Positions 1 through 19,610 of a DNA stretch of 64,000 bases are shown here, piece by piece. How positions within the stretch are numbered: the stretch's first letter is position 1; every line of letters starts with the position of its first letter. The DNA comes from Geobacteraceae bacterium (GTDB lineage Bacteria > Desulfobacterota > Desulfuromonadia > Geobacterales > Geobacteraceae): the NCBI GenBank assembly GCA_036518435.1, contig DATDNF010000034.1, forward strand, positions 12,446 to 76,445, read 5' to 3'. The notes under the pieces are model-generated. The model had not been told where the DNA came from and made no database searches. It worked only from the letters and a program-made list of their open reading frames with translations. Both the position numbers and the translations under genes were made by a program.

Positions 1-2
1 GG

Positions 3-143
3 GCCGGAGCCAACGCCCTGGGGACCGACCCCACCATCCTGTTCGATTCTAAGAACGGGGTGGTGCTCCAGGCGACCGTCGAAGTCGGCACCATCCCCGA
101 CGCCGCGACGCTCTCCGGCTACTTCGTCTACGTGATCGAGTAA
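3..143 (+). CDS. Phage protein, C-terminal fragment (gene begins upstream of the window)
   Basis: Open frame from the window edge to TAA at 141-143, with GC3-rich codon usage (…GTDPTILFDSKNGVVLQATVEVGTIPDAATLSGYFVYVIE*). Confidence 0.35.
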   Translation, partial: AGANALGTDPTILFDSKNGVVLQATVEVGTIPDAATLSGYFVYVIE

Positions 144-200
144 ACAAAGGCAGTTATGAAGGATGAAGGATGAAAGAAACCAAAAAGAGGAGATCGACCC

Positions 201-578
201 ATGAAAAAGCTGATCGCAGCCGCCGTGCTGCTTCTTTTGCCCGTCCTGGCCTACTCCGCCAGCGTCACCGTCGTCCCCTCCCTCACCCAGCCCGCCCAGG
301 AGTGCCGGGCGCAGGGGGTCGTGAGCTACGCCTTCGGCACCAAGGGTGGCGCATCCGCCCAGGTGGACACGTCCAGCGCCGCCTATATCTGGTACAACAC
401 CATCGACAGCACGGGGGCCGCGGCGAACATCGACCTCTACTTCAACAACATCTCCACGGCTAATTCGCGGTGGACGGCCAACACCGGGAAAATCGTCGTG
501 AAGAACAGTACCACGTACACCTTACGCAACCTCTCCACCGCCAAGGCCAAGACGGTAAAAGTGCTCAAGTGCAACTGA
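201..578 (+). CDS. Phage-encoded secreted protein (N-terminal signal peptide), unknown function
   Basis: ATG preceded by an AGAGGAG ribosome-binding site. N-terminus MKKLIAAAVLLLLPVLAYSAS is a typical Sec signal. Confidence 0.55.
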   Translation: MKKLIAAAVLLLLPVLAYSASVTVVPSLTQPAQECRAQGVVSYAFGTKGGASAQVDTSSAAYIWYNTIDSTGAAANIDLYFNNISTANSRWTANTGKIVVKNSTTYTLRNLSTAKAKTVKVLKCN

Positions 579-627
579 CCTGACCAGGGGGCGGGCGACC
601 GCCCCCGCAACCGCACGGGGGTGAAGC

Positions 628-1182
628 GTGATAACCAGCAAGATCCAGATCATCAACATGGCGCTCGGCGGACTCGGCGAGATCCCGGTCGGCAGCACGA
701 CCGAGACCAAATTCTCCCGGCTGGCGGACGCCCTCTTCGACGCCGCCCTAGAAGAGGTGCTCCGCGCCCACCCGTGGAACTTCGCGGTAAAGCGGGCCGT
801 CCTCGCGCCGGGCGCCACTCTCCCCGTCTCCGGCTATGCCGCCTCCTTCCCGCTGCCGCCCGATTGCCTCCGCATCCTCGACGCGGGAGAGGACAGCTGG
901 CGGGTCGAGGGGCGGGCGATCCTTGCCGACGCCGCGGCAATCTCCCTGCGCTACGTCGCGCGGCCAACCGACTCGACCTTGTGGGACGCCTCCTTTGTGG
1001 CTGCGCTGGTCGCTAACCTCATGTGGAAACTCACCTACCCGGTCACCAAGTCGACGACCCTGCGCGACTCCAACTTCGCGGCCTACAGCCAGCTTCTGCA
1101 GCAGGCACGCAGCATTGATGCTCAAGAAGAACCGGCCGAAGAGTTAGAAGAGTCCAGCCTGATCGCTGTGAGGGGGCGCTAA
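628..1182 (+). CDS. Tail tubular protein A (T7 gp11-like)
   Basis: 184 aa with a GTG start. N-terminus NMALGGLGEIPVGS…W NF resembles the T7 gp11 pattern (ILASIGEPPVS…GWTF). Position immediately precedes a ~720-aa gene. Confidence 0.65.
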   Translation: MITSKIQIINMALGGLGEIPVGSTTETKFSRLADALFDAALEEVLRAHPWNFAVKRAVLAPGATLPVSGYAASFPLPPDCLRILDAGEDSWRVEGRAILADAAAISLRYVARPTDSTLWDASFVAALVANLMWKLTYPVTKSTTLRDSNFAAYSQLLQQARSIDAQEEPAEELEESSLIAVRGR

Positions 1183-1185
1183 CCC

Positions 1186-18714: not shown

Positions 18715-18748
18715 CCAGGCCGCACGGCCACGAGAAAAGGAGAGCATC

Positions 18749-19087
18749 ATGGCACAGGTAACCGTAAATCTCCCCGAGTTAAAGGACTGGCGCACGACCA
18801 TCTTCGGCCTCGTCACGTCCATCGGGGCAGCACTCATGCAGTGGTTCCAGACCGGCCACATCACGTGGCAGAGGGCCGTGGCCTGCGCCCTGTGGGCCGT
18901 CTTCTGCTACCTCGTCCCGGACGCGAAGAGCAACGCGAACATGCAGGGGCAGATCGAGGCGCTCCTCGACGCAGTATCCAAGGCGCCCCCGACCACCGCG
19001 CCGGTCGACACTCTCAATGTGCCGGTGAATTCGGCCGCGACGCAGCCGGTGCAGGCTGCAATCGCCGAAACGGACGCGGCATTATAA
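18749..19087 (+). CDS. Holin candidate (two transmembrane segments)
   Basis: 112 aa. AAAGGAGAG ribosome-binding site. Transmembrane segments TIFGLVTSIGAALMQWF and AVACALWAVFCYLV. Stop overlaps the next ATG. Confidence 0.45.
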   Translation: MAQVTVNLPELKDWRTTIFGLVTSIGAALMQWFQTGHITWQRAVACALWAVFCYLVPDAKSNANMQGQIEALLDAVSKAPPTTAPVDTLNVPVNSAATQPVQAAIAETDAAL

Positions 19088-19464
19088 TGGACAGCATCGG
19101 CCCGATCCTGACCGTCATCGGCTCGATCATTCTCGTCCTGCTGAAGGCGTGGCAGGACGGGAAGCCGGGCCGGGACAAGGAGAACCGCAATGAAGAGATC
19201 CAGCGGGGGCGCCAGGCGATTACTGGCGGTGATGTGGCTGCTGTCGAACAGCGCATTGACCGGGTGCCAGCACGCGCCTCCGGCACTGCTGCACGACTCG
19301 GCAGCGATGAGGATACACAGAGGCGACTTGCCGCGCTCACCGGAGGCGGAGGGGTGGCTGATCTCCGACAACGCCCTGGCGAAGATCCTGGAGGCGGCGG
19401 AGGCATACCGATCAAAATAGCGAATGCCACGTTTATCGAGGGACAGGGACACCTCGTGATATAG
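19087..19464 (+). CDS. i-spanin (Rz-like): N-terminal transmembrane segment plus charged periplasmic domain
   Basis: ILTVIGSIILVLL transmembrane segment, then a charged, coiled region. Contains an embedded +1-frame lipoprotein ORF. Confidence 0.45.
   Translation: MDSIGPILTVIGSIILVLLKAWQDGKPGRDKENRNEEIQRGRQAITGGDVAAVEQRIDRVPARASGTAARLGSDEDTQRRLAALTGGGGVADLRQRPGEDPGGGGGIPIKIANATFIEGQGHLVI
19190..19420 (+). CDS. o-spanin (Rz1-like) lipoprotein embedded in the i-spanin gene
   Basis: AAGGAGA ribosome-binding site 7 nt upstream. MKRSSGGARRLLAVMWLLSNSALTGC gives a lipobox L-T-G-C. Lies entirely inside 19087-19464 in another frame. Confidence 0.45.
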   Translation: MKRSSGGARRLLAVMWLLSNSALTGCQHAPPALLHDSAAMRIHRGDLPRSPEAEGWLISDNALAKILEAAEAYRSK

Positions 19465-19486
19465 GTGTGTCTTTTTGTGTCTGTTG

Positions 19487-19519
19487 AAAAAAAGAAAAAG
19501 GCCCCGCGGATCGTCCGCG
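19487..19519 (-). terminator. Rho-independent terminator downstream of tRNA-Phe
   Basis: On the minus strand: CGCGGA-CGA-TCCGCG hairpin followed by a T-run (A-run 19487-19500 on +). Confidence 0.45.
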
Positions 19520-19534
19520 AAGCCTTGATTTTAC

Positions 19535-19610
19535 TGGTGCCCAGGGACGGAATCGAACCGCCGACACGAGGATTTTCAGTCCTCTGCTCTACCGACTGAG
19601 CTACCTGGGC
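19535..19610 (-). tRNA. tRNA-Phe (anticodon GAA), with encoded CCA
   Basis: Reverse complement is GCCCAGGTAGCTCAGTCGGTAGAGCAGAGGACTGAAAATCCTCGTGTCGGCGGTTCGATTCCGTCCCTGGGCACCA. Cloverleaf, GAA anticodon in a CT-GAA-AA loop, TPsiC GGTTCGATTCC. Confidence 0.95.

Follow-up and report, generated by a model that had tools for sequence, protein, structure and literature searches.

What kind of phage can carry a T7-like set of virion genes into the tRNA gene of a Geobacteraceae bacterium? The question is posed by a 64,000-nucleotide stretch of DNA from such a bacterium (contig DATDNF010000034.1; hereafter the window), which begins inside a prophage and passes through a tRNA-Phe gene into host DNA. 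T7-like phages are classically strictly lytic, and integrated ones are known in only a few lineages. The original prediction for this locus read the element as a T7/SP6-like member of the Autographiviridae and drew attention to that rarity. We find that a temperate podophage prophage very probably occupies the tRNA-Phe gene of a Geobacteraceae host; it would measure about 34.7 kb, and window positions 1-19580 would be its right-hand 56%. Positions 1-19464 hold, on the plus strand, one unbroken operon-like run of phage late genes. The element is another example of the already known temperate podophages that join a T7-supergroup virion module to a lambdoid early region, and apparently an intact one. 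A podovirus prophage in a Geobacter-like genome is thus what the locus contains, in keeping with the NCBI protein names ('MAG TPA ... [Geobacteraceae bacterium]'). The assignment to the Autographiviridae does not hold, given the CI-, Cro- and CII-like early region and a large terminase subunit (TerL) that is closest to those of temperate podophages; the argument from rarity consequently does not apply. Gene content, synteny, the structure of the right attachment junction (attR), and the presence of an integrase gene (int) and core repeat in the same sample and metagenome-assembled genome (MAG) are all directly visible in the data.

Reconstruction of the upstream part

As the window begins inside the prophage, we rebuilt its left part from three Logan contigs of run SRR25158276 (L001, L024 and L026), together with the NCBI accession numbers of the same MAG. 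L001, found by an exact-protein look-up with the gp12-like protein, shares 11,399 bp with the window at 100% identity. Window position 1 corresponds to L001 5356, so that 5,355 bp are added upstream, with genes for the portal (PF12236), a Bbp19-family protein, a protease-like protein and the capsid. The portal is HEY6872779.1, named 'MAG TPA: portal protein [Geobacteraceae bacterium]' at NCBI, and belongs to a 173,846-bp contig that also carries a second tyrosine recombinase (HEY6872774.1; P0143), TerL (HEY6872797.1) and efp (HEY6872803.1). L024 (7,002 bp), reached by searching with the second recombinase of a related phage in another Geobacteraceae MAG (L016), encodes a CII-like protein, conserved small early proteins, the second recombinase and a YopX protein. 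L026 (2,770 bp) was obtained from the Logan member of the integrase cluster. In the orientation of the window it opens with 30 nt identical to window 19551-19580, which belong to the attachment core described below, and continues with int (391 aa, minus strand), an open reading frame (ORF) of 130 aa, a CI-like repressor gene (minus), a Cro-like gene (plus), two small ORFs and a (CAGAAGG)n tract. The int product, HEY6872273.1 (P0255), is part of the same MAG accession series and lies on a 39,438-bp contig. A profile of the relatives' integrases had matched P0255 but nothing on the 173,846-bp contig, which at first read against an integrase; this was resolved when int proved to lie on the other contig of the same MAG and to have a Logan copy.

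The (CAGAAGG)n tract at the end of L026 overlaps the start of L024 by 28 nt (L024 1-28). This tandem repeat sits between the Cro-side genes and the CII-like gene, and it probably explains why the NCBI MAG has the prophage divided between the 39,438-bp and 173,846-bp contigs. Between L024 and L001 no end-to-end overlap was found at first. When the two are joined with a 2-nt overlap, a 34-nt perfect palindrome results (AAGGTAGCTCAACCTTGCAAGGTTGAGCTACCTT), followed by a TTGACA-containing stretch; it lies about 220 bp upstream of the portal start and 5.3 kb upstream of window position 1. Being longer than the k=31 of the assembly, the palindrome accounts for the break at this point, and it may be a terminator or an operator ahead of the late genes. 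In the NCBI numbering the portal comes five accessions after the second recombinase, and therefore no extra gene stands between them. The prophage rebuilt in this way (L026, L024, L001 and the window) measures about 34.7 kb, and related viral contigs measure 34.5-37 kb. Read from left to right, it consists of a repeat of the tRNA-Phe core, the gene for the tyrosine integrase, that for the CI-like repressor with the Cro-like gene divergent from it, the CII-like gene, the small genes of the early region, the second tyrosine recombinase and the portal, ahead of the remaining late genes.

Integration in the tRNA-Phe gene

The right end of the prophage is complete in the window. An intact tRNA-Phe(GAA) gene occupies 19535..19610 on the minus strand (ARAGORN; Rfam RF00005, 72.4 bits over the full model), with efp next to it at 19674-20237. 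The final phage stop codon ends at 19464, which leaves 70 nt to the tRNA 3' end and agrees with the element's predicted end about 70 bp from a tRNA-Phe on the opposite strand. Comparison with two viral contigs of related phages, L023 and L020, delimits the attachment site. L023 12323-12387, which overlaps the stop codon of its int, matches window 19515-19579 at 100% over 65 bp, and L020 matches the tRNA-Phe core region at 98% over 47 bp, beside its integrase gene. The shared block consists of tRNA-Phe nt 32-76, that is, the 3' 45 nt from the anticodon loop to CCA, plus phage sequence past the tRNA 3' end. Its limit falls within one base of the anticodon loop's 5' edge; past that point the window continues as tRNA and the phages continue into int. 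The identity with the attP of L023 and L020 defines an att core of 46 bp at 19535..19580, running from the anticodon loop to the CCA end of tRNA-Phe, so the 3' part of the intact tRNA gene has been rebuilt from phage DNA.

Eight nucleotides past the tRNA 3' end, in the phage arm of attR, lies the intrinsic terminator of tRNA-Phe (19498..19526, minus strand), a 13-bp stem followed by TTTCTTTTTT. Homologous hairpins occupy the equivalent place in the attP of L023 and L020, which indicates that the phage supplies both the 3' part of the tRNA and its terminator. The perfect 65-bp identity with the L023 attP argues that the window junction is a genuine attR, and its sequence presents the textbook arrangement of an attP recombined with a tRNA attB. 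Integration at the 3' end of tRNA-Phe had been proposed for this locus, and an attR of exactly this structure is what the relatives' attP predict. We also considered whether the tRNA-Phe might be phage-encoded and rejected this, as its 5' part and the adjoining efp are host DNA and the relatives hold only its 3' 45 nt. ARAGORN found no tRNA genes in the related loci because attP contains only a tRNA fragment. In this respect the element resembles other tRNA-targeting elements with tyrosine integrases: the phage copy restores an intact tRNA, and a terminator in the phage arm is to be expected of such elements and is nothing unusual. The identity block, bounded by the 3' end of the tRNA and the 5' edge of its anticodon loop, is likewise that of the anticodon-loop sublocation class, as the class is cited in PMC10134795 (Williams 2002).

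On the left, the 30 nt of core beside int in L026 come from the same sample, and they match the expectation of an integrase and a tRNA-Phe 3' repeat at the far upstream end of the element. This copy of the core could be the attL or the attP side. The 39,438-bp NCBI contig with int is longer than the whole phage, so that host DNA must adjoin int, which argues for attL. In L020, L021 and L023 the integrase gene (minus strand) comes after the lysis genes, and the short spacer between them carries the tRNA fragment. L020 and L023 share the tRNA-Phe core of the present prophage. L021 and a prophage of Oryzomonas japonica have an integrase of a different type, and the L021 attP (~3660-3710) contains the 3' half of a different tRNA. 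Integrase and tRNA target thus appear to be swapped together within this phage lineage.

These observations are compatible with the following course of integration. In the free phage, attP would lie directly 3' of the tyrosine integrase gene as a copy of tRNA-Phe nt 32-76 followed by the terminator hairpin. On recombination with the host tRNA-Phe gene, the phage would come to abut the tRNA 5' part with its lysis end and would complete the tRNA from its own copy, terminator included; this junction would be the attR of the window. The displaced host 3' segment would come to lie beside int at the other end, as attL; the exact host flank there we infer, as we do the regulation and the inducibility of the prophage. 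Judging from homology and gene arrangement, lysogeny is presumably maintained by the CI-like repressor, divergent from the Cro-like gene, with a CII-like activator. As the phage has no RNA polymerase gene, transcription of the late genes would fall to the host enzyme, and the agents of lysis would be a cytoplasmic endolysin with a lysozyme fold, the candidate holin and a two-component spanin of the embedded type.

Early region and the second tyrosine recombinase

The early region spans about 9.7 kb, and its largest ORFs, of 391 and 344 aa, both encode tyrosine recombinases. The shorter of these (L024 4002-5036) is located about 2 kb upstream of the portal gene, near the 3' end of the early operon, and is additional to the att-adjacent integrase. 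It also occurs in L016 (8324-9358) and in the O. japonica prophage (L014 6604-7650), with partial copies at the ends of L020 and L021. It is therefore conserved in the Geobacteraceae-associated relatives and absent from the cultured phages Piluca and YeP4. Its function may lie in cyclisation, in dimer resolution or in switching.

Affinities of the phage

Profile searches with PHROG and Pfam confirm the original prediction in that the late genes follow a T7-like order and that the tail-fibre adaptor and the spike are separate proteins; the E-values, given with the genes below, are much too low to be due to chance. By these profiles the virion module would be of the T7 supergroup, with a T7-type portal, tail tube proteins A and B, TerL and fibre N-terminal adaptor. 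It would also include parts of the BPP-1/epsilon15 type, namely the Bbp19-family protein, the prohead protease-like protein and a gp17-like pilot protein. At the profile level, homology with the T7 late module thus extends to the portal, tubes A and B, the fibre N-terminus and TerL, of which TerL alone is detectable in pairwise comparison: when 22 T7 proteins were compared by tblastn with the rebuilt prophage, the single significant match was TerL (24% over 533 aa, E 6e-19). The T7 RNA polymerase, DNA polymerase and primase-helicase gave only chance-level matches on the rebuilt prophage (E > 0.5 throughout; gp1 E 1.4, DNA polymerase and primase-helicase E > 0.7), and no early gene matched a T7-type DNA polymerase or primase-helicase in PHROG or Pfam. 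A phage RNA polymerase, expected upstream of the window if the element were T7-like, is accordingly not there; no ORF of the early region exceeds 391 aa.

TerL itself points in another direction than the Autographiviridae. Matches to TerLs of that family cover only the first ~200 aa at about 30% identity, and the full-length matches in the phage collection (33-42%) are exclusively to temperate, integrase-bearing podophages: YeP4, YeP5/6, Piluca and an Acinetobacter phage. The Autographiviridae (T7, SP6, K1-5; LUZ100, HTVC019P) do share with the present phage the late-gene order, the PF12236 portal family and a TerL that is 24% identical to gp19. SP6 and K1-5 have the gp17 N-terminal domain as an adaptor separate from the spike, T7 gp18.5/18.7 have the same embedded Rz/Rz1 spanin architecture, and the temperate members of the family likewise integrate beside a tRNA. 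The present phage departs from them in lacking an RNA polymerase, a DNA polymerase of T7 type and a primase-helicase, and nothing implies a T7 promoter system. It possesses instead a CI/Cro/CII-like early region, the terminase genes before the fibre gene, and, in addition to the T7 late module, a protease-like gene, Bbp19, a GNAT acetyltransferase and an epsilon15-type pilot protein.

Among cultured phages, the nearest relatives are Yersinia phages YeP4, YeP5 and YeP6, which are induced prophages of Y. enterocolitica, and Alcaligenes phage Piluca, all unclassified temperate podophages of about 35 kb. Full-length TerL identity is 42% with YeP4, 41% with YeP5/6 and 35% with Piluca. A tblastn comparison of 23 proteins of the present phage gave matches in the same order for 13 of them in YeP4 and for 10 in Piluca. 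The late order is the same in these phages: portal, (Bbp19), protease-like protein, capsid, tube A, tube B, GNAT, internal proteins, pilot protein, small terminase subunit (TerS), TerL, fibre and lysis genes. So too is the succession of a tyrosine integrase and a CI/Cro region after the lysis cassette on the circular map. A combination of CI, Cro and Int with tail proteins resembling those of T7 and epsilon15 is also what the authors of the Piluca study describe (PMC9022569). The differences are that protein identities are only 25-44% and that the hosts are Gammaproteobacteria or Betaproteobacteria versus Geobacteraceae. Further, the YeP4 early region encodes a DNA polymerase, a helicase and a primase, and that of Piluca encodes Bet/Exo and DnaA/DnaB-like proteins, none of which is present here, whereas the present phage has the second tyrosine recombinase and an endolysin of another, unmodelled family.

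Closer relatives are found among uncultured phages: one in Geobacteraceae MAG GCA_054813885.1 (L016), a prophage of O. japonica Red96 (L014, L004, L018) and the IMG/VR contigs L017, L020, L021 and L023. Their portals are 53-64% identical to that of the present phage (O. japonica 53%, L016 64%) and their TerLs 53-77%. L016 shows the order int (minus), small ORF, CI-like (minus), Cro-like (plus), many small genes, second tyrosine recombinase and portal, and the general layout of int, CI divergent from Cro, then portal through lysis is common to L016, the O. japonica prophage (L014, L018), Piluca and YeP4. The uncultured relatives share the early synteny, including the CII-like gene, a WHD protein and the second recombinase. 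In contrast, the immunity region, spike and endolysin have been swapped among them, L020 and L023 having GH24-type lysozymes. The phages epsilon15, BPP-1 and BcepC6B are likewise temperate with a tyrosine integrase, and they share the gp17-like virion protein of 868 aa (26-28% identity) and a Bbp19-family protein after the portal. They differ from the present phage, whose TerL and tail-tube proteins match PHROGs shared with T7-type phages. In phages of the epsilon15/BPP-1/BcepC6B type the terminase stands at the start of the late operon.

Weighing of alternative readings

Given that temperate Autographiviridae with both an RNA polymerase and an integrase do exist (PMC10134795), the locus might be a genuine prophage of that family, comparable to LUZ100, Pasto, HTVC019P and the Pseudomonas putida prophages, in which an integrase lies beside a single-subunit RNA polymerase and T7-type replication genes. 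The T7-like late order, the T7-type portal, the RNaseH-like domain of TerL and the fibre N-terminal domain would fit such a phage. The early region does not: its ~9.7 kb contain CI-, Cro- and CII-like genes in place of any ORF beyond 391 aa, the accession numbering leaves no space for further genes between the second recombinase and the portal, the T7 replication and transcription proteins find only chance-level matches, and the TerLs of the family align over merely ~200 aa at 30%. We consider this reading extremely improbable. Temperate Autographiviridae of that kind are a different thing from the present element. Equally implausible, in our estimate, is an artefact of metagenome assembly in which the genome of a free phage was fused with the host tRNA-Phe locus by way of the 46-bp core common to both. 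Such a join is conceivable in that the core is common to attP and the host tRNA, and the k=31 Logan assembly breaks exactly there, the last position of L025 being window 19564 and the first of L026 the equivalent of 19551. Yet in the NCBI MAG the phage does not form a separate contig of ~35 kb but occupies the end of one large contig (173,846 bp) and the end of another (39,438 bp), both of which must include host DNA; the junction coincides precisely with the attR that the relatives' attP predict; and relatives are integrated in isolate genomes such as that of O. japonica Red96.

An integrated prophage might also be defective, a cryptic remnant no longer able to excise or to form particles. 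The early region offers no recognisable replication initiator, helicase or excisionase, there is no evidence of a free form, and the spike has an N-terminus resembling a signal peptide, which seems incompatible with assembly in the cytoplasm. Against this, all late ORFs from portal to spanins are intact and full-length relative to those of the relatives; int, the CI-like and Cro-like genes and the att core are all present; the 34.7 kb fit the size of the related viral contigs; and signal-like spike N-termini recur in the O. japonica relative. Decay is thus an unlikely explanation, though a less remote one than the preceding two. The reading of an intact temperate podophage prophage in tRNA-Phe has points that weigh against it as well. 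No replication genes are recognisable in the early region, TerS and holin are identified by position only, and the joins of L026 to L024 (through the tandem repeat) and of L024 to L001 are inferred and not read through, although the NCBI gene count speaks for them. At attL the host flank is not seen, as L026 starts within the core and alone cannot separate attL from attP. Finally, the source is a metagenome-assembled genome.

Head-tail, internal virion and terminase genes of the window

The window opens with the 3' end (1..137, plus strand, as are all late genes below) of a gene for a 186-aa protein following the capsid gene (L001 4938-5498), which has no PHROG match. Between the head and tail genes there is an ORF for a 125-aa protein (201..578; MKKLIAAAVLLLLPVLAYSAS...) with a hydrophobic, signal-peptide-like N-terminus. 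It is a possible moron, with no match in PHROG, Pfam or NCBIfam and no tblastn match in the related loci. The tail tubular protein A, gp11-like (628..1182; PHROG 394 tail protein, E 1.7e-47), is 38-43% identical to its counterparts in Piluca, YeP4 and the O. japonica prophage. It is followed by the gp12-like tail tubular protein B, or nozzle (1186..3357; PHROG 376, E 2.5e-137), which matches Pfam Phage_nozzle below threshold (21.3 bits vs 27). A GNAT N-acetyltransferase (3350..3808; PHROG 1249, E 8.6e-19; Pfam Acetyltransf_7 and Acetyltransf_1 above cutoff) comes next; its gene is kept at the same position in YeP4 (by tblastn) and Piluca (by annotation).

The internal virion genes begin with a gp14-like protein (3805..4341; PHROG 418, E 3.9e-19) that has an N-terminal hydrophobic segment by hydropathy. 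A conserved small protein of 71 aa (4343..4558), called in the Logan contig, is 40% identical to its O. japonica counterpart. The 652-aa protein at the gp15 position (4555..6513) is presumed from that position to be an ejection or internal virion protein. It has no PHROG, Pfam or NCBIfam match and is 27-34% identical to proteins of L014, L018 and L020. Of the tail and internal virion proteins originally predicted, those like gp11, gp12 and gp14 are therefore supported by PHROG, and the gp15 assignment is positional only. At the gp16 position lies a polyvalent internal virion protein of 1338 aa (6611..10627; PHROGs 9880, 1145 and 21376), 44-58% identical to those of the relatives. It contains an ART-PolyVal ADP-ribosyltransferase domain (Pfam; aa 384-509, E 9.1e-21, 75.5 bits vs a cutoff of 31.2) and a HELGH metallopeptidase-like motif, a combination which suggests that it may be an enzyme injected into the host. 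An extra gene, absent from the earlier list, encodes a virion (pilot/ejection) protein of 868 aa in the epsilon15 gp17 / BcepC6B / pelagiphage family (10768..13374; PHROG 684, E 4.8e-160), with tblastn matches in epsilon15, BcepC6B, YeP6, Piluca (as 'pilot protein') and Pelagibacter phages.

A putative TerS of 122 aa (13371..13739) is assigned by its position directly 5' of TerL, as is the annotated TerS of Piluca. It is kept in the relatives and matches PHROG 9277, a family of unknown function (E 3e-15). TerL (13743..15383) is of the T7 type (PHROG 38, E 9.5e-65; Pfam PF22530, the T7 terminase RNaseH-like domain, 32.3 bits vs a cutoff of 27), and its translation contains the P-loop and acidic motifs that had been pointed out, as AFRGFSKS and ADEFLLDDVE.

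Adaptor and tailspike

The tail-fibre adaptor is a 220-aa protein (15396..16058; PHROG 1640, E 2.8e-30), of which the T7 gp17 N-terminal domain spans aa 1-109 only; the Pfam Phage_T7_tail match is sub-threshold (23.2 bits vs 25.2). Downstream of it lies a beta-helix tailspike or depolymerase-like protein of 672 aa (16086..18104; PHROG 19988, E 1.5e-55; Pfam Beta_helix, 26.3 bits vs 25.9), whose aa ~180-650 show 25% identity with Klebsiella phage K11-type spikes. The G+C content of its gene is 50-57%, versus ~65% in the rest of the prophage. Its N-terminus is Sec-signal-like (MKRIMLFFAAFCLLAVTTSWAAP; signal-like peptide MKRIMLFFAAFCLLAVTTSWA/AP), which is unexpected in a protein whose assembly takes place in the cytoplasm. 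The O. japonica relative encodes two proteins 3' of the adaptor (L018 12380-13021 and 13035-15128) that are likewise signal-like at their N-termini.

An unlikely possibility is that the spike and the 125-aa protein encoded at 201-578 are not virion parts but are exported by the lysogen to remodel the exopolysaccharide or cell surface of the Geobacteraceae host, and, separately, that the second recombinase is a lineage-specific Cre-like enzyme of cyclisation or dimer resolution, or a late-gene switch. If this were true, the two exported proteins would confer lysogenic conversion or superinfection exclusion.

Lysis cassette

The 197-aa product of 18121..18714 has no match in Pfam, PHROG, NCBIfam, PDB sequences or 50,697 phage genomes, and its family numbers 98 relatives among 1.84 billion protein representatives. 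Some of these homologues are fused to PG_binding_1, PG_binding_3, Peptidase_M23 or XVIPCD, the last being a secretion domain of antibacterial effectors, and homologues are also found within proteins of about 2,800-3,200 aa. An AlphaFold model built from 42 homologues reaches a pLDDT of 94.5, compared with only 41 for the single-sequence model. It has a lysozyme-superfamily fold nearest to GH46 chitosanases and the type VI secretion system effector VgrG-3, and the homologue alignment reveals a near-invariant Glu18, which fits a catalytic glutamate. The fusions to cell-wall domains, the confidently modelled lysozyme fold and Glu18 together support the prediction that this protein is an endolysin of a family for which no model exists.

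Next comes a holin candidate of 112 aa (18749..19087), proposed from its position. It has two moderately hydrophobic segments that remain below the strict transmembrane threshold of the hydropathy scan and shows no convincing family match. The last gene of the late operon encodes an Rz-like i-spanin of 125 aa (19087..19464), which has an N-terminal transmembrane segment and a periplasmic domain by translation and hydropathy and no match in PHROG, Pfam or NCBIfam. Within it, in another frame, is a 76-aa ORF for an Rz1-like o-spanin (19190..19420; MKRSSGGARRLLAVMWLLSNSALTGCQ..., lipobox LTGC), and the two would form a classic embedded i-spanin/o-spanin pair. The lysis genes had been predicted as endolysin, holin and spanins: the lysozyme fold and the embedded LTGC ORF bear out the first and the last, and the holin is a positional guess. 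A terminator-like hairpin (19449..19468, plus strand) closes the operon.

A low-G+C islet in the host part of the window

In the host DNA, positions 46250-50969 form an islet of low G+C (46-49%). It encodes a DUF5131 (phage Gp37/Gp68-like) protein, an MqsA/HTH_3-like protein, two unknown proteins and a RES-domain protein that matches a HEPN/RES N-terminal domain weakly and below threshold. The islet probably serves in defence or as a toxin-antitoxin locus and has, in all likelihood, no connection with the prophage.

Conclusions

The analysis amounts mainly to a correction: a T7-like order of structural genes does not by itself signify a rare temperate prophage of the Autographiviridae. Of modest practical value are the endolysin domain family, which lacks a Pfam, PHROG or NCBIfam model, and the conserved second recombinase. 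The element belongs to a widespread and poorly classified group of temperate podophages that unite a T7-supergroup virion with lambda-style immunity and integration, and it provides a complete, well-delimited example from the Geobacteraceae with a defined attP/attB core in tRNA-Phe. Prophage induction is reported to damage Geobacter biofilms, according to a reference cited in PMC11629682. The present example could aid the annotation of prophages in electroactive bacteria.

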